Shown: positions 18,436-32,361 of the stretch, in pieces
How the letters are laid out: each line of letters opens with the position of its first letter
Position numbering within the stretch: position 1 is the stretch's first letter
NCBI GenBank assembly: GCA_001789395.1
Contig: MFZK01000014.1
Location: forward strand, 47,130 to 111,129
Reading direction: 5' to 3'
Length of the DNA: 64,000 nt
Source: Candidatus Roizmanbacteria bacterium RIFCSPHIGHO2_02_FULL_37_13b
GTDB lineage: Bacteria > Patescibacteriota > Microgenomatia > UBA1406 > HO2-37-13b
Translations under genes and position numbers: made by a program
The notes under the pieces: generated by a model
What the model saw: only the letters and a program-made list of their open reading frames with translations
Databases searched by the model: none
What the model was told of the DNA's origin: nothing

Positions 18436-18561
18436 GCTTGTTCTTCCGACGATGTCCCGTCAAATCGCACCACGAGCCGTGTTCGAATAGAACTGAAAAG
18501 GCGAGTGGTAAGATCGTGTTGGGGCAAGACGCAAGAAACAATCTCCAAAGCGATAAAACCA

Positions 18562-18828
18562 TCAACTCATCATTTGTCTCAATATTCTATAAATATCCTT
18601 TCTATGAGAAATCAGGATAATATACACTATTTGCTTTTGTTGTCGATAGACGATCCGATAATCGCCGACTCTGATGCGAAAGACATCCCGATAGCCTTTG
18701 AGTTTCTCTTCATTTAGATGAATATTGCTATCACGAAGACTTCTTATTTTTTGAGCAATGGCAATTTGATCTATTTTAGTGAGATGACGGAGACTTTTTT
18801 CTGCTTGAGGAGAAAGAATGATCCTCAT
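18562..18828 (-). CDS. type II toxin, RelE/ParE superfamily
   Basis: 88 aa. KLKGYRDVFRIRVGDYRIVYRQQKQIVYIILISHRKDIY is the typical RelE/ParE C-terminal signature. 4-nt overlap with the upstream antitoxin. Confidence 0.85.
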   Translation of the reverse strand: MRIILSPQAEKSLRHLTKIDQIAIAQKIRSLRDSNIHLNEEKLKGYRDVFRIRVGDYRIVYRQQKQIVYIILISHRKDIYRILRQMMS

Positions 18829-19064
18829 ATTCCAAGTTCATTTGCTACATCTTCAAAATTTTTTCCCTTTTTAAAGTCTGCGGAGACTACCGCTTTGTTA
18901 TCAATATAATTCTCAATATAAGCCATAAGCTTTTCATAGAGATCTTTGCCGATAAGATAGGCTTTTACTTGATTTCTTTTTTCAACTGCAATCGGATAAT
19001 CGAATGCACGATCAATAATCTTTGCCGGTCTGGATTTTAGTTGTGAGATAGAAACTGTGTTCAT
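18825..19064 (-). CDS. type II antitoxin, Phd/YefM-like
   Basis: MNTVSISQLKSRPAKIIDRA...PIAVEKRNQVKAYLIGKDLYEKL. The track ORF extends to 19094, but ATG 19064 gives the family-typical N-terminus. Confidence 0.8.
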   Translation of the reverse strand: MNTVSISQLKSRPAKIIDRAFDYPIAVEKRNQVKAYLIGKDLYEKLMAYIENYIDNKAVVSADFKKGKNFEDVANELGI

Positions 19065-19100
19065 ATAGACATAATAATAAGATATTATTAACATATTGTC

Positions 19101-19141: not shown

Positions 19142-19170
19142 TTGACTTATAGTTGTTATTATATTACAAT
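19142..19170 (+). promoter_or_regulatory. sigma70-type promoter for the 712-aa gene
   Basis: TTGACT at 19142-19147, a 17-nt spacer, then TACAAT at 19165-19170. Confidence 0.6.
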
Positions 19171-19204: not shown

Positions 19205-21343
19205 ATGGACGAACATAGGCCTGTTGTTAATTCAACAACTTCTCCAGAACTACAATTATTTAAAGAACCTATAATAGAAGAACAATTACATGCTCTTGAA
19301 AAAGCGCTTCTCGAATATAAGCGACCTGATTCTTTAGATTCAGCATATACAGCCGTTCTACAAATTCCTGGTATCGAAGTATATGGTCTGTCGGTAGATA
19401 GATCAATAGACGAATCAGCAGATGATTTAAAACGAATGACTGATGATATCATGAATGGATCAGAACAGTTCGCTGCTCCACCGTTACTTGCAGGTTCAGC
19501 TCGTTGGACAGATTCAGAAACTGCTGAATTTATGGGTAAACATCCTGCATATAGACCTCAAATAGAATTACCAGAAAAGCCAGAAGAACGAATAAAAGTA
19601 TATTTACCAGTTTTAAACTTGTTGACTCATCGCATTCATCGCGTGGAAGAACAACTGCACGAATCACCGGATTCCACTGACTTGCAGAAGCTTCGAAGAG
19701 ACCTTCATAATCAGCGCAGTATGATGTATCTGGGGTTACTAGTTGAATTTGGAGGTCCGTTTAAACGAGCTGCCGAAGATCAATTATGGCTGTATGATCC
19801 TCGAGAGGATGAGGAAGCGGGATATATGAATCCACAAAAATCAAGGTTAATTGGTGATGTAGTAGAAAGTATTGCTACTGAAGAAGGAGTTGATATAGCA
19901 GAATTAAAACAGAAAGTCCTTGATGCTACATATGATGGCGATCTATCTTTAATTAATACTTTTTTATTTGGGAAACAGGGCGACCATGCGACTCGTCGAG
20001 CACTTGAGGAGATATTAGATCGAAGAGTATCAGATAGACAGTGGCAAGCAAGCGTTTTAAGATCGGCCTATGTGTTGGAATTATTTAGACAGAGATCTGG
20101 CCTCACTCTGGACGATATGATGATGTATAACGGACTTCCTTCCTTAGATGTTACTTTACAAGGATTACGTGATTTTGCTGCAAGCACTCAACTTCATAAT
20201 GATCTTAGTGCTCATATAGCTGTTGAAGCTAAACCAGAACAGGATGCAGCAGGTGAGCAACATAGGCCAATGCAGATGTATCGATTAATAGAGGAACGGG
20301 CGATTAGAAGAGGTTTTGCCGATCGTTTACCTAATAGAGAAAGAGCTACAGAGTATGCTAGAAGCTTGGAAGTCTTATGGAATAAATTATTTCCTTTAAA
20401 TACTAGATTAGCCGGAGATTACTCATGTCATTTATTGACTAGACGAGGCGCCAATCAACGCGCTGGTGCTAATACTTATTATACCGGTGATATGGAGCAT
20501 CCAGGAACCGTTCATGTTTTACATATTCCTACAATGGATACAGTGCAACTTCCCGCATATTTACCTCATGAAAAAGGTCATGAAAAGCATGCTCAAGTTG
20601 TCGCATTAGCAGGTGAGAAAGGTTTAGCAGAACCAAGAGCTTATGAATCTATCCCTGGTGGTGTTAGTGAAGCGATTGCTATGTTACTTGAAACATCATT
20701 TCCTCCAATTGCCGATGAAGAAGGTATTCGATACGTTGGTGATCCTTCTGAGACAAATAAAGATGTCCCACCAGTGGAAAAACCCGATGGCGTAACGACA
20801 AAAGATTTATATCAAACCGTTGTCATGCGAGCATTTCAAGCTATAAAAGGTTTTGCGGGAGGGGAGGCTCGACGTCAGTTGCAGGATTTTGTATCCAGAG
20901 GGACTCAATTTAAACAAAGTGAAGCAGATGATCTTGTTCCTCAAATAGATGCTGAGGTATTAAAACTTGCGAACTCAACCGGAGTGGATTTTGGTGCAAG
21001 AGGTTCCTCATTGGGTTATTTACTGCTTGAATTATGGAATCCTGGTGACGGTAGTATTTATATCGCTAGTAAATTACCGCAAGTAGATTATGGATTAGAA
21101 GAAGAGTCAGGATCAGACGAAGAAGGAGCTGAAGAGACCGATATAGACTTAGCTTATGAATTTACGTCTCGATATGGAGAAAAATGGCTAGATAGGACAG
21201 AAGCTCGACAACATTTAATTGCCTTAATGTATCGAACAGACTCTGAACGTAATTTAGCGAAATTAGCTGAATTTATAAGAACAGCAAAACCTGAGGAAGT
21301 TGAGCAGACCCTTGAAGAACTAGGTCTATCGGATTATATATAA
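19205..21343 (+). CDS. acidic 712-aa putative zinc metallopeptidase (gluzincin, M2/M3/M32-like signature), otherwise unrecognised
   Basis: PHEKGHEKH (HExxH, HExGHxxH as in M3) is followed 30 residues after the second His by GGVSEAIAMLLE. Compare the ACE motif HEAIGDVL and the thimet oligopeptidase motif EAPSQMLE. No signal peptide. D/E-rich and K-poor, unlike neighbouring proteins. Confidence 0.5.
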   Translation: MDEHRPVVNSTTSPELQLFKEPIIEEQLHALEKALLEYKRPDSLDSAYTAVLQIPGIEVYGLSVDRSIDESADDLKRMTDDIMNGSEQFAAPPLLAGSARWTDSETAEFMGKHPAYRPQIELPEKPEERIKVYLPVLNLLTHRIHRVEEQLHESPDSTDLQKLRRDLHNQRSMMYLGLLVEFGGPFKRAAEDQLWLYDPREDEEAGYMNPQKSRLIGDVVESIATEEGVDIAELKQKVLDATYDGDLSLINTFLFGKQGDHATRRALEEILDRRVSDRQWQASVLRSAYVLELFRQRSGLTLDDMMMYNGLPSLDVTLQGLRDFAASTQLHNDLSAHIAVEAKPEQDAAGEQHRPMQMYRLIEERAIRRGFADRLPNRERATEYARSLEVLWNKLFPLNTRLAGDYSCHLLTRRGANQRAGANTYYTGDMEHPGTVHVLHIPTMDTVQLPAYLPHEKGHEKHAQVVALAGEKGLAEPRAYESIPGGVSEAIAMLLETSFPPIADEEGIRYVGDPSETNKDVPPVEKPDGVTTKDLYQTVVMRAFQAIKGFAGGEARRQLQDFVSRGTQFKQSEADDLVPQIDAEVLKLANSTGVDFGARGSSLGYLLLELWNPGDGSIYIASKLPQVDYGLEEESGSDEEGAEETDIDLAYEFTSRYGEKWLDRTEARQHLIALMYRTDSERNLAKLAEFIRTAKPEEVEQTLEELGLSDYI

Positions 21344-21394
21344 ATTTTGAATGAATCTATATAATTAGACATTATTCTAATTTTTCTTCTTCTT

Positions 21395-21423
21395 TTGACT
21401 ACCTATAGTCTACATACTATAAT
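21395..21423 (+). promoter_or_regulatory. near-consensus sigma70 promoter in the island intergenic region
   Basis: TTGACT at 21395-21400, a 17-nt spacer, then TATAAT at 21418-21423. Confidence 0.6.
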
Positions 21424-21429
21424 GCAGTA

Positions 21430-21482
21430 TCCCAATATGAAGCACTGAAGATATATTGCTTATCTTAATGAGTGCTGTTTTT
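21430..21482 (+). ncRNA. candidate short transcript or leader ending in an intrinsic-terminator-like hairpin
   Basis: Starts about 7 nt after the -10 box. Hairpin AGCACT(21441-46)...AGTGCT(21471-76) has an inner AAGATA/TATCTT pairing, followed by GTTTTT. Confidence 0.3.
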
Positions 21483-21679
21483 ATGGGTCGAAGCTCTCTT
21501 TTATTAGAGGAGCGGAGATCCCTACCGAAGTCCCGACTTTGCGTCGGGACGAAGGGGGAATTTTTTTGCACTTTGGCACTTTGACCCAGCTAGAACTCTT
21601 ACTTCGGTCTGAGAGGCTTACAGCCTCCCACTCCCGAGGAGTGAGTCTACTGGGTTTGCAGTGCTACACACTTTTACAA

Positions 21680-21693
21680 CAAGTGAGTTATTT
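21680..21693. repeat. left copy of 14-bp inverted repeat CAAGTGAGTTATTT flanking the high-GC cassette
   Basis: Perfect reverse complement of 23585-23598. Confidence 0.7.
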
Positions 21694-21696
21694 GTA

Positions 21697-21741
21697 TATG
21701 TCATTGCGAGGATCCCGCTCAGCGGGGGACGAAGCAATCTA
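21697..21741 (+). repeat. TGTCAT...ATC hairpin repeat (TGTCATTGCGAG-GATCCCGCTCAGCGGGGGA-CGAAGCAATC)
   Basis: Shares the TGTCAT 5' end, a GC hairpin core (CCCGC/GCGGG) and an ATC 3' end with the two units at 46689-46745. Confidence 0.6.
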
Positions 21742-21756
21742 GTCACATCTTTAAAA

Positions 21757-21814
21757 TATCCAGCAAGGAGATTTGTATATATGTAAACATATATACAGTT
21801 CGACTTGCTGGATA
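21757..21814. repeat. 58-nt nested perfect hairpin
   Basis: Outer stem TATCCAGCAAG (21757-67) pairs with CTTGCTGGATA (21804-14). Inner stem TGTATATATG (21774-83) pairs with CATATATACA (21788-97), with loop TAAA. Confidence 0.85.
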
Positions 21815-21815
21815 A
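21803..21815 (+). repeat. left copy of direct repeat ACTTGCTG(G)ATAA at the low-GC/high-GC transition
   Basis: ACTTGCTGGATAA here and ACTTGCTGATAA at 23604-23615. Confidence 0.6.
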
Positions 21816-21929
21816 GCCAGCAATATAGAGAAAGGAGAGGACTAACCCGAGCCGGCGGTTCCGGCAAAAACCTCGTTTTCAGGCGAGGATCGTAGACTAC
21901 GAATAAATAAAGAAAGGTTTGTTAATCAC

Positions 21930-23432
21930 ATGGACATTCACGTCCACCATGGACCAATCCAGACGACAGCCGCAGACGCAATCGTCGTCAACCTCTTTCA
22001 AGGTGTCACTCACCTGGGTGGTGCCACCGGAGCCGTCGATGCCGCCTTGGGCGGCCAGATCAGCGCCGTGATCGGTAGCGGCGACTTTAAGGGCAAGCTT
22101 GGCGAGACGCTTGTCCTATACGGTCGTGGCGTCATCCCGGCCTCCCGTGTGATCGTGGTGGGTCTCGGCAAGGCCGAGGAATTCATCCTGGACACCGTAC
22201 GGTGTGCCGCGGCCGCGGCAGCCCTCGCTGCCCGCAAGCTGGGTGCCCGGAGTCTCGCCACGATCGTGCATCGGGCCCGCGGCGACCAGTTAGATCTCGC
22301 CGCTGAGGCTCAGGCGCTGGTGGAGGGCACACTGCTCGCACTCTACGAGTTCAAGATCTACAAGACACAGGGGGATGAGACACCTTCCCAGGTAGAGTAC
22401 CTGACGGTGGTCGAGACGGATAGCGACCGGCTCGAGGCCATTAGTTCAGGTATCGTGGCCGGCGAGGCTGTGGCAGCCGGGGTGATCCTTGCTCGCGACC
22501 TGGCCAACCATCCGGGCAACGTGGCCACGCCGACGTACTTGGCAAACCAGGCCGTGGCGTTGGCCGAGCGTCACGGAATGCGTGTCGAGGTCTGGGATGC
22601 CGATCGAATGCGTGCTGAGGGCATGGGCGCGTTCTTGTCGGTCTCGGCCGGCTCGGCCGAGCCGCCGAAGTTCATCATCGTGGAATACGCGCCGACCGGC
22701 GACGCGGTACTCTCCCCCCACGTGTTGGTCGGGAAGGGGGTTACCTTCGATACCGGCGGCATCAGCCTCAAGCCCGGAGCGAAGATGGGTGACATGAAGT
22801 TCGACATGGCTGGCGCCGCCGCCGTGCTGGGGACGATGGAGGCCGTCGGTCGACTCAGTCTTAACAGGCGGATCGTCGGTCTCATCGGAGCCACCGAGAA
22901 CATGCCCGGTGGTAAAGCGACCAAGCCTGGTGACATCGTGAGGACCTTGACCGGCGCCACGGTCGAGATCGTCAACACCGACGCCGAGGGGCGTATGGTG
23001 TTGGCCGATCTCCTCGGATTCGCCCGTCGTCTTCAGCCGGCGGCGGTGGTGGATCTGGCGACGCTGACGGGCGCCATCGTCGTCGCGTTGGGGAGTCAGT
23101 ATGCAGGCCTCTTCGCGAACGACGACGCTTTGGCCTCCGCCTTGCAGGTTGCAGGCGAAGCGACCGGTGAACCTCTCTGGCGCATGCCGTTGGGGAAGCG
23201 ATACGATGACATCGTCAAGAGCAAGGTCGCAGATATGGCCAACTTGGCCCCAGGAAGTCCGGTGCCGGCCGGAGCCGTAAACGGCGCCAAGTTCCTGGAG
23301 CGCTTCGTGCAGTACCCGTGGGCGCACCTCGACATCGCTGCCACCGCCTGGGATGCCAAGGATATCTCCTATATCCCCGAAGGAGCTACCGGATTCGGGG
23401 TGCGGCTGCTCGTCCAGTGGCTGCGTGCCTGA
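21930..23432 (+). CDS. pepA: leucyl aminopeptidase, peptidase family M17; strongly GC-rich relative to the rest of the window
   Basis: 500 aa with the M17 signature NTDAEGRMVLADLL and VGKGVTFDTGGISLKP. GC-rich codon usage produces long spurious antisense ORFs (for example 22446..23327). Confidence 0.93.
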   Translation: MDIHVHHGPIQTTAADAIVVNLFQGVTHLGGATGAVDAALGGQISAVIGSGDFKGKLGETLVLYGRGVIPASRVIVVGLGKAEEFILDTVRCAAAAAALAARKLGARSLATIVHRARGDQLDLAAEAQALVEGTLLALYEFKIYKTQGDETPSQVEYLTVVETDSDRLEAISSGIVAGEAVAAGVILARDLANHPGNVATPTYLANQAVALAERHGMRVEVWDADRMRAEGMGAFLSVSAGSAEPPKFIIVEYAPTGDAVLSPHVLVGKGVTFDTGGISLKPGAKMGDMKFDMAGAAAVLGTMEAVGRLSLNRRIVGLIGATENMPGGKATKPGDIVRTLTGATVEIVNTDAEGRMVLADLLGFARRLQPAAVVDLATLTGAIVVALGSQYAGLFANDDALASALQVAGEATGEPLWRMPLGKRYDDIVKSKVADMANLAPGSPVPAGAVNGAKFLERFVQYPWAHLDIAATAWDAKDISYIPEGATGFGVRLLVQWLRA

Positions 23433-24480: not shown

Positions 24481-25632
24481 ATGACAGCACAACCTGAAGC
24501 ACCAATTTCGCAAGAACTTCTCCAACAAGCCGCTGATAATTATTATCATTGTTTAAATTTACCAAGAGGAAGCAATGTCATCGTGGTATCAGAATCAATA
24601 CCAGAGGGTGGACGAAATGTTGATGCAAGTGTCCTGTTGAGAAATACATTAGCAGACCAGATTAGACAAAAAGCTGAAAGAGATGACCATTCGGTAGCTC
24701 ATTTATCATTTAACAATGAAACAACCGAAGATGAATTCCGCGATTCAACATCAAGAACGCTTTCAGAATATTGTTTAGAAGACGGCGATAAACCACCGGC
24801 GTCAACTACTATAGTATATTTGGGAGATTATTGGGCAAATAGAGGCGGTTTGTATCAGGCAGCAAACGAACATGGATTAAGGCATGATATTAGGATTGCC
24901 GGTTCAATCGGTCTAACTTCAGGAGATATCCGTGTTTTGAGCGCGCTCACAAGAGAAAAACAAAGAGAGATGTCGCAAGTATCAAATGTACTCGAAGCCA
25001 AATTTCAGAGGAATCCAAAGGGATTTATTCAGGTTAAGACTTTGTCAGCAGAAGGTCATGAGCATTTATTAAATCTTCCCTATGACTGTCATCAAGCTCC
25101 CTTCAAAACTGATCCCGGTCGAATTGATGATGAACATCCAATAAAAATGGGCGCCTTTCGATTTCATAATATTCCTGGCGGCCATTTTTTTGGAGCTCCC
25201 TATGAATTTAAACATACAAATGGTAAATTTGTAGCACAGGGCATTGTCTTTAATGTAGTAGATGGTTTGATTGCAGATATTACTGATGATATAGAGGGAT
25301 CGTATGAAAAATTAGATCCAGATCAGCGACGAGCATTAGATTATGTAAAGGGCGGTGGTGGATTACCCTTGTCAGAATTGGGAATCGGATTACATCGGCA
25401 GGTTAATGTCCCAAGTTTTTCAGATTGCTCAATGTTGACCCGGACTAAATCAGGAGTATATTTTGGATTAGGTGAAGCTCATAGCGACACTTCAGAGGCT
25501 GAGCAAATTAGAGGTCTACCAAGCGGCCGCGTTCATTATAATTTTATCCTTTCTGATCCTGAGCTTAGCTTATTAACGCCATCTTTAGATGATCCAATTC
25601 CTATCTATCAACATCAAGCAACGGCTGATTAA
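24481..25632 (+). CDS. divergent M29 (aminopeptidase T/PepS)-like protein
   Basis: FHNIPGGHFFGAPYE aligns with the M29 motif N-[IL]-P-x-x-E-[VI]-F-T-A-P. ELGIGLH and YFGLGEAH resemble later M29 blocks. Acidic and K-poor, like the 712-aa protein. Confidence 0.4.
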   Translation: MTAQPEAPISQELLQQAADNYYHCLNLPRGSNVIVVSESIPEGGRNVDASVLLRNTLADQIRQKAERDDHSVAHLSFNNETTEDEFRDSTSRTLSEYCLEDGDKPPASTTIVYLGDYWANRGGLYQAANEHGLRHDIRIAGSIGLTSGDIRVLSALTREKQREMSQVSNVLEAKFQRNPKGFIQVKTLSAEGHEHLLNLPYDCHQAPFKTDPGRIDDEHPIKMGAFRFHNIPGGHFFGAPYEFKHTNGKFVAQGIVFNVVDGLIADITDDIEGSYEKLDPDQRRALDYVKGGGGLPLSELGIGLHRQVNVPSFSDCSMLTRTKSGVYFGLGEAHSDTSEAEQIRGLPSGRVHYNFILSDPELSLLTPSLDDPIPIYQHQATAD

Positions 25633-30267: not shown

Positions 30268-32361
30268 ATGTTTAATTTTTTAAAAAAAGACCAATTAAGC
30301 GAATCGGAAATATATTTCGGGTTAGTGTTAAAAGAAAATGAAGGGATTGGAATGATCTTGAAGGTTGATAAGAGATCAAAACGTCTTTCTGTTATAAAGG
30401 AACATAAAATAGCTTTCACTGATGGTTGGGAACGGCTGACAGAGGATGTTGACCAGACTTTGTATGAATTGGAAAAAGTGACTAAAACGCAAACAAAGAA
30501 AATAATCTTTTTTTTATATTCCCATCTTATCGATCAAAAATCCAAAAAAATAGAAAAACCCTATTTAGACAAGATTAAAAAAATAACAGAAAATTTAGAT
30601 TTAAAAGCAGTTGGTTTTATCGAATATCATGAAGCGATCGCTCTATATCTTGAAAAAAAAGAAGAAGCACCTTTAACCTCAATAATAATTGAGCTAGATA
30701 AACCGGTGATTACTCTTTTCGTCTATAAAGGAGGCGAGCTCTTTTTTTCTGAAAGTATTGCAAAGACAGAGAATCTAGTTTCCGACATGGAAATCTTAAT
30801 GTCAAAAATTAATGGTGAAATAATCTTACCCTCCAGGATTATTCTTTATGATTCAACTCGATTGATTTCAGAATCTGAAAAAATTATGGCTCATAAATGG
30901 GATGAGCGGTTGTTCATTCAAATTCCAAGAGTCGAAATTATGTCTGCAGATCACCTGCTGCAGGCATTGATTGAGGCATTTTCTGCACAAGTGTTTGATG
31001 ACGCTCAAATTGAAGAAGTATTGGAAAAAGATGATTCTGATTTGATGGGATTTATTGTTTCGCAAGATATTAATGATATAAAAAATGCCCCGCAAACAAA
31101 AACAATAGTGGAGCCAAGTAATCCCATGATTGCACCGCCAAATATAATCTTAGATTCAATCGCAAAAAGAATAAAAGGAGTTGTTATTAACTTAAAGTCA
31201 ATGAGTGGGCGTTTAGGGCAAAAAAAAATATATCTACTCATGTCCATTGCCGTTATAGGAATAATGATTGTGCTGTTTTGCAGCAGTTTATATTTCTTTC
31301 ATACGGGTTCAGTGACTTTGTTTTTTGATGAAGTAAGTGAGGCAAAAGAATTTCGAATCAAAGGACATTTGACTAATTCTGGGATTGTCGAAGGGATTTC
31401 GATAGAAGAACAAAGTAAAACAGTTGAAATATCGGATAACATAGATACAAGTGGCGAAAAAATTATTGGCGAAAAAGCCAGTGGAATCGTGGCGGTCTAT
31501 AACAAAGAGAAAAATGAAAAAACTCTTAAAAAAGGTTCCGTATTAGTTTCGACAAACGGCATAAAGTTTGCATTAGATGACGACATAAAAGTTGCTTCCG
31601 CATCTGAAAGTCTGACAAGCGAAGGGAACATTTTGACCGTGACGGGAAAAAACAAGGTACAAATTACCGCCGCAGATATCGGGTCTAAAGCTAACCTAAA
31701 GAAAGGTGAAAAATTAAAAATTGAAGATTTCTCTGAAAATATTGTATTTGCCTTAGTGGAAACGGATTTGACCGGTGGTAGCGAAAAGAGTATCAAGACA
31801 GTATCTAAAGATGATATAGCCAAGCTAAAAGAAAAAATTAATAAAAAGGCAGTTACGGAAAATAAAATATCTACACCTCAGGATGTTAATAAAAAAATAA
31901 TTAATTCTTTGACATCGGTGACGAGCATACTCGACACCTATTCACATGAAGTTGGTGAAGAAGCCAATAGCATTAGTCTTAAAACAAAGGTAAAATTGGT
32001 TTTCTATGTATTTAACGAAGAGGATTTGAAGAAAGTCATTGTTAATAGTTTGAAAAGCAGTATAAGTGATGATTATGAAATTATTTCAACAAATTTGGCT
32101 TATTCAATAACTTCTGCAAAAAAAGAGGAAGGTAGATTTACGTTTTATTTAAAGACGACTGCGAAACTTGCAAAAAAAATTGATAAAGAAAGATTAATCG
32201 AATCTCTTCTTGGAACGTCCGTCGAAGAAAGTAAGTCACGTTTAAAAGAAAATCAAAAAATTAAGAAAATTGATATTAATATTCAAAGTCCGATTCCAAT
32301 CTTACAATCTCGTATGCCTTTTTTTAAAGAACATATTAAGATTTCAGTGAAGTCGATCTGA
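30268..32361 (+). CDS. 697-aa bitopic membrane protein of unknown function
   Basis: Cytoplasmic N-terminal ~330 aa, one TM (IYLLMSIAVIGIMIVLFCSSLYFF), and an extracytoplasmic beta-rich C-terminal half. No family recognised with confidence. Confidence 0.5.
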   Translation: MFNFLKKDQLSESEIYFGLVLKENEGIGMILKVDKRSKRLSVIKEHKIAFTDGWERLTEDVDQTLYELEKVTKTQTKKIIFFLYSHLIDQKSKKIEKPYLDKIKKITENLDLKAVGFIEYHEAIALYLEKKEEAPLTSIIIELDKPVITLFVYKGGELFFSESIAKTENLVSDMEILMSKINGEIILPSRIILYDSTRLISESEKIMAHKWDERLFIQIPRVEIMSADHLLQALIEAFSAQVFDDAQIEEVLEKDDSDLMGFIVSQDINDIKNAPQTKTIVEPSNPMIAPPNIILDSIAKRIKGVVINLKSMSGRLGQKKIYLLMSIAVIGIMIVLFCSSLYFFHTGSVTLFFDEVSEAKEFRIKGHLTNSGIVEGISIEEQSKTVEISDNIDTSGEKIIGEKASGIVAVYNKEKNEKTLKKGSVLVSTNGIKFALDDDIKVASASESLTSEGNILTVTGKNKVQITAADIGSKANLKKGEKLKIEDFSENIVFALVETDLTGGSEKSIKTVSKDDIAKLKEKINKKAVTENKISTPQDVNKKIINSLTSVTSILDTYSHEVGEEANSISLKTKVKLVFYVFNEEDLKKVIVNSLKSSISDDYEIISTNLAYSITSAKKEEGRFTFYLKTTAKLAKKIDKERLIESLLGTSVEESKSRLKENQKIKKIDINIQSPIPILQSRMPFFKEHIKISVKSI

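Follow-up and report, generated by a model that had tools for sequence, protein, structure and literature searches.

A 712-residue hypothetical protein of Candidatus Roizmanbacteria predicted to be a divergent zinc peptidase of the neurolysin-like fold

Introduction

In the 64,000-nt stretch of contig MFZK01000014.1 of Candidatus Roizmanbacteria bacterium RIFCSPHIGHO2_02_FULL_37_13b that was analysed here, and that is called the window below, a ribosomal-protein/SecY/RpoA operon closes with rplM-rpsI and is followed by a ParE/Phd-YefM toxin-antitoxin (TA) pair (18562-19094, minus strand) and then by an open reading frame (ORF) of 712 amino acids (aa) on the plus strand (19205-21343, ATG to TAA), which is divergent to the TA pair and separated from it by 110 bp. 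The GC content of the window is about 36%. The 712-aa protein is the subject of the present study. It has been deposited as "hypothetical protein A3C23_05495" of Candidatus Roizmanbacteria (OGK20619.1 / OGK53303.1 / UniRef100_A0A1F7JCG2), and the identical protein was found in several metagenome assemblies of groundwater, on 22 contigs in all, with the same context throughout.

An initial annotation of the locus had recognised no family in this protein, had drawn attention to a HEKGHEKH...SEAIAMLLE signature and had proposed either a divergent peptidase of the neurolysin/ACE fold or a new HExxH family. Here, homologue searches, conservation analysis and structure prediction were combined, and together they lead us to predict that the protein is probably an active cytoplasmic zinc peptidase of the neurolysin/ACE fold. 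The coding sequence was annotated as a predicted neurolysin-like zinc oligopeptidase.

The gene and its product

Both the ORF and the signature lie where the initial annotation had placed them. The protein has a pI of 4.84, consists to 17.4% of Asp and Glu and contains a single Cys. In agreement with the initial annotation, a Kyte-Doolittle scan revealed neither a transmembrane segment nor a signal-peptide-like N-terminus (highest 19-residue mean 0.97). The gene is not preceded by a Shine-Dalgarno sequence, which is unremarkable because most genes of the window have none, and an Rfam scan gave no match within or around it.

Family membership and distribution

While a word-indexed homologue search, performed both with the single sequence and with a profile, returned the query itself only, an exhaustive HMMER search of 1.84 billion cluster representatives at E<=1e-3 retrieved 34 distant cluster representatives. 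Most of these are 615-725 aa long and align with the query end to end at identities of 21-32%, mostly 22-27%. Wherever members carry a name they are called "hypothetical protein", and they stem from Roizmanbacteria, Chisholmbacteria, a "Patescibacteria group bacterium" or an unclassified metagenome-assembled genome (MAG). The window protein is one divergent member of a small family, comprising 35 clusters at 50% identity, that has so far been labelled only in Patescibacteria/Microgenomates. A tblastn search of member P0005 against plasmids yielded chance RepB matches only (E>=0.6).

A paralogue of 725 aa (P0018/P0037; locus tag A3C23_00025; L021, 8001-10178) is encoded in the same Roizmanbacteria genome. 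It is 21% identical to the window protein, retains an intact HELTHKTH motif, adjoins a gene for an MFS transporter and is present also in a sister MAG (locus tag A3H78_03840).

Conservation of the active-site signature

The motif HEKGHEKH comprises residues 455-462 (nt 20567-20590), and E489, located within GGVSEAIAMLLE, follows exactly 30 residues past H459. In a random protein of the same composition 0.05 HExxH motifs are expected by chance, so that the motif alone is only weakly significant. Conservation was therefore counted in an alignment of 32 sequences, whose mean identity to the query is about 20%. Only five columns are invariant, namely E456, H459, E489, Y619 and W661, and high conservation was observed for H455 (31/32), H462 (27/32), D615 (30/32) and G616 (30/32). 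Since, at such low identity, E456, H459 and E489 do not vary at all and H455 varies in only one of the 32 relatives, the signature exceeds what chance would produce. As far as sequence conservation can tell, the conserved set is the one that a gluzincin requires: two His, a catalytic Glu, a further Glu as ligand and, in a loop that contains Gly, a Tyr. The ligands H455, H459 and E489 that had been proposed in the initial annotation thus coincide, together with the presumed base E456, with the conserved core of the family.

The elements of the putative active site are arranged as follows. A three-stranded beta-sheet of residues 406-440 (20420-20524, plus strand, as for all elements named here), with the near-invariant residues G415 and R419, stands directly before the active-site helix 449-471, in which H455 and H459 would be zinc ligands and E456 the general base. 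H462 gives the motif the HExxHxxH form that is typical of M3 peptidases. The next helix, 485-505 (GGVSEAIAMLLETSF...; 20657-20719), carries the invariant E489 (nt 20669-20671) as the presumed third zinc ligand, and also E496, which is kept in about two thirds of the members. With HEKGH (455-459) in one helix and Glu on the following one, the arrangement corresponds to that of the gluzincins of clan MA(E). Further downstream, the loop D615-G616-S-I-Y619 (21047-21061) contains the invariant Y619, a candidate for a Tyr that stabilises the transition state, and the C-terminal helical segment (21155-21340) contains F653, the invariant W661 and a terminal 'GL/GI' motif. A weak alignment links this segment to the extreme C-terminus of E. 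coli oligopeptidase A.

From the second His to Glu, the window protein as well as 20 of the 32 members have a distance of 30 residues; the overall range is 18-36. Nine of the 32 members (P0006, P0008, P0010, P0014, P0019 and P0021-P0024) have HExxxH, mostly as HExxGH with a one-residue insertion. These variants are no argument against catalysis, because pentapeptide HExxH and hexapeptide HExxGH zinc motifs both occur within the single family M49, that of dipeptidyl peptidase III (DPP III) (PMC5805324, PMC9820243).

Predicted structure

The AlphaFold2 model that was built with the 32-sequence alignment is a confident one, with a mean predicted local distance difference test score (pLDDT) of 83.8 and a predicted template modelling score (pTM) of 0.87, and all five models reached pLDDT values between 80 and 84. 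It is almost wholly helical. The three strands of the small sheet (406-411, 421-426 and 433-440) are followed by the HExxH helix 449-471 and then by the long helix 485-505 with E489.

When the model was compared with the PDB by Foldseek, 17 matches with a probability of 1.0, E-values of 1.9e-5 to 5.4e-3 and alignments of 680-820 columns were obtained. Fifteen of them are M3 or M2 peptidases: on the M3 side putative oligoendopeptidase F (PepF; 2h1n/3sks), Pz-peptidase A (3aho/3ahm), organellar oligopeptidase (OOP; 4ka8) and neurolysin (5luz/5lv0), on the M2 side the N- and C-domains of ACE and AnoACE2. The remaining two both belong to a single uncharacterised entry, a "putative lipoprotein" (3o0y), and represent different chains of it. 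After these 17, unrelated membrane proteins follow with E>0.1 and a probability below 0.1. A two-lobed, mainly alpha-helical structure whose closest neighbours lie in the M2/M3/M32 group was found, and the model thus shows a predicted neurolysin-like fold with the HExxH motif inside helix 449-471, as the initial annotation had suggested. The template modelling (TM) scores, however, are just 0.37-0.48.

Sequence relation to known peptidase families

Scans of the 712-aa protein against Pfam, NCBIfam, PHROG and PADLOC gave no credible match. Specifically, PF01432 (Peptidase_M3) failed to match the query at a threshold of E<=1, and at E<=0.1 neither it nor the NCBIfam pepF/M3 models matched a single one of the 32 members. 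The pepF/M3 models did not match the query either, and for M2 (PF01401) and M32 (PF02074) there was no Pfam match to the query or the members. Sequence searches of the PDB, both with the protein (phmmer) and with the family profile (hmmsearch), detected no M3 chain and returned spurious designed helical repeats only. Both halves of the proposal in the initial annotation therefore hold, as the structural model retrieves M3 and M2 peptidases and no sequence model of M2, M3 or M32 matches.

In addition, the family profile was aligned by hhalign with an M3A profile of 10 sequences, consisting of E. coli OpdA and Dcp and eight plasmid-borne M3 genes. The alignment is collinear over 389 columns (probability 16%, score 38.1). 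In it, HExxHxxH pairs with HEFGHxLH, and the last strand of the 406-440 sheet with the edge strand by which M3A binds its substrate; Y619 falls on the final Tyr of GGYxAGYYSY, and WGI at the C-terminus coincides with the GL terminus of M3. A collinear course was seen also with single M3A sequences. In control alignments the reversed M3A profile scored 16.7, and block-shuffled M3A profiles scored 38-39, over 40-60 columns only. Because the block-shuffled scores equal the real one, the sequence signal is confined to the active-site block formed by the edge strand, HExxHxxH and the Glu helix. Over its full 389 columns, and so also where Y619 meets the catalytic Tyr, the alignment is no better than the block-shuffle null and was dropped as evidence.

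From these data, membership in M3 as defined by sequence does not follow, since no member is matched by the Pfam or NCBIfam models and the ligand spacing is 30 instead of 25 (His467 to Glu492 in K-26-DCP; PMC5157764). As the M2, M3 and M32 models miss the family and its similarity to M3A stays within the active-site block, it is set apart by sequence, and we regard it either as a sequence family of its own or as an extremely divergent branch of M3.

Comparison with known peptidases and alternative explanations

The second of these two possibilities, a very divergent M3 member forming a PepF-like subfamily, is the best surviving alternative, although it appears rather unlikely to us. The top structural neighbours belong to M3B (PepF and Pz-peptidase A; 2h1n, 3sks, 3aho), the motif has the HExxHxxH form, the length is similar, and hhalign aligns the family collinearly with M3A over 389 columns. 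The M3B enzymes resemble the predicted window protein in being cytoplasmic proteins of about 560-700 aa, with the HExxHxxH helix after a small sheet and the Glu ligand one helix further on; a conserved Tyr, of which Y619 may be the counterpart, lies downstream. However, the Pfam and NCBIfam scans detected no sequence-profile similarity to M3B, and PF01432 and the pepF/M3 models fail for the family throughout. The His-to-Glu spacing is about 25 in M3B, and the window protein is about 100 residues longer, and acidic. In addition, the window family is so far known only from bacteria of the Candidate Phyla Radiation (CPR), and HExxxH occurs among its members. With M3A (thimet oligopeptidase, neurolysin, OOP, E. 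coli OpdA and Dcp, K-26-DCP) the protein shares, by its model, a helical fold in which two lobes flank a central channel (PMC5157764), and it shows local profile similarity at the edge strand, HExxHxxH and the Glu helix, with weak similarity also at the C-terminal 'GL' end. This collinear similarity is, however, no higher than in the block-shuffled controls, and the GGYxAGYYSY loop of M3A stands against a PxDGxxY loop in the window family in which the Tyr loop is about five residues shorter.

Less probable still is the explanation that fold and chemistry are as proposed here and that the enzyme is an exopeptidase, working as a peptidyl-dipeptidase or as a carboxypeptidase in the manner of ACE, Dcp or M32, and not endo-acting like PepF and thimet oligopeptidase. 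Target-normalised TM-scores of 0.46-0.48 for the ACE C-domain and AnoACE2 are equal to or above those of the M3 matches, the best local hhalign match with a single sequence is E. coli Dcp, and SEAIAM resembles HEAIGD of the ACE ligand helix, a likeness to which the initial annotation had pointed and which was counted in favour of an exopeptidase. On the other hand, the best E-values go to PepF-type endopeptidases of M3B, HExxHxxH is the M3 pattern, and no M32 structure was found among the Foldseek matches listed. The likeness to M2 (ACE, AnCE/AnoACE2) lies in the fold, with target-normalised TM-scores of up to 0.48, and in the 'EAI' motif of the ligand helix; by Pfam, the window protein has no sequence similarity to M2. 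The enzymes of M2 differ in being glycosylated dipeptidyl carboxypeptidases that depend on chloride, are secreted or anchored in the membrane and have the motif HEMGH with a spacing of 24.

Another two-lobed group of cytosolic zinc enzymes that degrade oligopeptides, M49, resembles the window family in that pentapeptide and hexapeptide zinc motifs are mixed. Its fold differs from the neurolysin-like one by a beta-barrel in the lower lobe. The second motif of M49, EEXRAE, lies at about 55-60 residues, whereas KEExA lies at 30 in the window protein. There was no Pfam match to M49, no DPP III structure was present among the listed 50 Foldseek matches of highest rank, and the window protein has the pentapeptide and not HEXXGH.

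It is very improbable that the protein has merely kept an ancestral fold and is an inactive scaffold (pseudopeptidase) or hydrolyses a substrate other than a peptide. One relative, P0015, has EExxH, and the motif is missing in the weak relative P0034. The window protein is moreover an outlier that differs from the consensus of its family at many positions which are conserved in other members (G100R, Q132V, G137L, Y139L, R202D, W289Y, N427T, N440H and Q552G). All of its presumed catalytic residues are nevertheless intact, and they lie within the only invariant positions of the family. That such an outlier retains every one of these residues argues for selection on catalysis.

Proposed mechanism and role

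For the zinc peptidase of neurolysin-like fold that we favour, a mechanism can be proposed by analogy with M3 and M2 chemistry. H455 and H459 of helix 449-471 and E489 of helix 485-505 would bind one Zn2+, and E456 would act as the general base that activates a zinc-bound water. The edge strand of the 406-440 sheet may hold the substrate backbone, and the deep channel between the two lobes would limit substrates to short unfolded peptides. In the M3 enzyme K-26-DCP, zinc is bound by His463, His467 and Glu492, Glu464 is catalytic and Tyr606 hydrogen-bonds a transition-state analogue (PMC5157764). By this analogy, Y619 in the DGxxY loop is a candidate for the Tyr that would stabilise the tetrahedral intermediate (oxyanion), in the way of Tyr606; the alignment that pairs the two loops is statistically unsupported.

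M3 enzymes are cytoplasmic and cleave peptides of fewer than 20 residues (PMC5157764). Cytoplasmic turnover or salvage of oligopeptides is the likely role of the 712-aa protein. In a CPR cell, which is expected to rely on scavenged amino acids, it might break down oligopeptides that are imported or derived from proteolysis, and thereby feed aminopeptidases.

More tentatively, the family as a whole may constitute a new, MEROPS-level family of neurolysin-fold zinc peptidases that is confined to Microgenomates/Patescibacteria and is marked by the 30-residue spacing, the shortened DGxxY loop and the mixture of HExxH and HExxGH. It could replace PepF/M3 in the salvage of intracellular or host-derived peptides, possibly with two specialised paralogues per genome.

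Promoter, composition and genomic context

The initial annotation had additionally stressed a strong promoter of its own, the adjacent TA module and an atypical composition of the gene. The promoter-like site and the TA pair were reproduced, the atypical composition only in part, and none of the three proved informative. A promoter-like site TTGACT-17-TACAAT (19142-19170, plus strand; 10/12 matches) lies 34 nt upstream of the ATG. It is plausible but not distinctive, because the number of such sites in the region (14, compared with 10.9 +/- 3.1 in shuffles) is not above the shuffled background of this AT-rich spacer. The GC content of the gene is 0.40 and that of the window 0.36. The excess is found at codon position 1 (0.58) and is found in other members of the family as well (0.54-0.63 at this position), so that the raised GC content is an effect of amino-acid usage. 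At codon position 3 (GC3) the gene has a GC content of 0.22 and is at least as AT-rich as the neighbouring genes, and recent horizontal transfer was rejected, as this native GC3 gives no hint of it.

The TA pair is real and is not linked to the family elsewhere. No shared neighbour was found among the six family contexts that were examined. In the window the gene adjoins ribosomal-protein genes and the TA pair, whereas the neighbours elsewhere encode RecG/NusB/RNase III/S16, ComEC/ArgRS, NadD/NadE, an MFS transporter or a two-component system. In each context the gene is thus a solitary one amid housekeeping genes, as would be anticipated for a housekeeping enzyme, and a functional tie to the TA pair is disfavoured. 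A function of the 712-aa protein as a cargo or effector tied to the ParE/Phd pair, or to a mobile or defence island, would be in keeping with the short distance to the divergent TA pair, with the promoter-like sites on both strands of the spacer, with a Gp49-family gene and a transposase in the context of P0004 and with a foreign 64% GC gene downstream, but it was rejected as scarcely credible, as neither PADLOC nor PHROG gave a match, GC3 is native and the other members adjoin unrelated housekeeping genes with no conserved partner.

Between the stop codons of rpsI and parE, a stretch of about 125 nt (18436-18561) has a raised GC content (~0.43-0.50); it contains no tRNA and has no Rfam match.

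Neighbouring genes and other features of the window

A gene for an M17 leucyl aminopeptidase (21930-23432, plus strand) starts 586 bp downstream of the 712-aa gene and stands out by a GC content of 64%, a GC3 of 0.77 and sharp boundaries. Its junction with the 712-aa gene is not a chimera, because it recurs in at least five independent assemblies. In GTDB species genomes, its best relatives are just 49-54% identical, and they are nearly all non-CPR (Latescibacterota, Anaerolineae/Thermoflexus, Acetothermia, Desulfuromonadales and Gemmatimonadota), together with two archaeal MAGs. Its composition and relatives mark the M17 gene as horizontally acquired, from a donor that is unsampled, and as unameliorated.

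Between the two genes, the 586-nt spacer (21344-21929) carries TTGACT-17-TATAAT at 21395-21423 (11/12), the best promoter-like site on the plus strand of the scanned region. It also contains an inverted repeat with 28-nt arms (21757-21814; 86% complementary, 2-nt loop) and several short GC-rich hairpins. No Rfam family was detected in the spacer, and the hairpin gave chance matches to miRNA precursors only.

Downstream of the M17 gene, the minus strand between 23700 and 24343 encodes a protein of 109 aa that matches DUF5674 (E 5e-27) and a basic protein of 102 aa that is unannotated. They are followed by an acidic ORF of 383 aa (24481-25632, plus strand), which has high GC at codon position 1 and low GC3 as the 712-aa gene does. 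This ORF has no Pfam or NCBIfam match and a single detectable homologue (P0048, 34% identical). Its AlphaFold2 model is poor (pLDDT 51.7), and in a Foldseek comparison that returned generic alpha/beta matches, PepS (4icr, M29) ranked only fourth, with an alignment of 339 columns. The motifs NIPGG[H/E] and SELG[I/L]G recall those of M29 aminopeptidases. A peptide-degradation operon consisting of the 712-aa gene, the M17 gene and the 383-aa ORF was also considered and is unsupported, given that the M17 gene is foreign and that the 383-aa ORF is unassigned and absent from the other family contexts.

Further downstream, an ORF of 697 aa (30268-32361, plus strand) follows a gene for a solute-binding protein; its sole match is a marginal Baseplate_J-like one (E 9e-5), just above the Pfam cut-off.

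Significance

What is new here is most likely a small and previously unrecognised sequence family of the CPR, the fold and mechanism of which are already known. As both belong to textbook knowledge, the gain lies in annotation and enzymology and not in concept. A family that had been labelled only "hypothetical" and is covered by no curated profile library receives a testable function, and the sequence space of the M2/M3 fold is widened. The family would also be a second natural example, after M49, in which HExxH and HExxGH occur side by side, and may thus inform about the tolerance of the zincin metal site. With their minimal capacity for biosynthesis, CPR bacteria presumably live on scavenged metabolites, and for this reason their repertoire of peptidases, to which the family described here would probably belong, bears directly on how these organisms feed.

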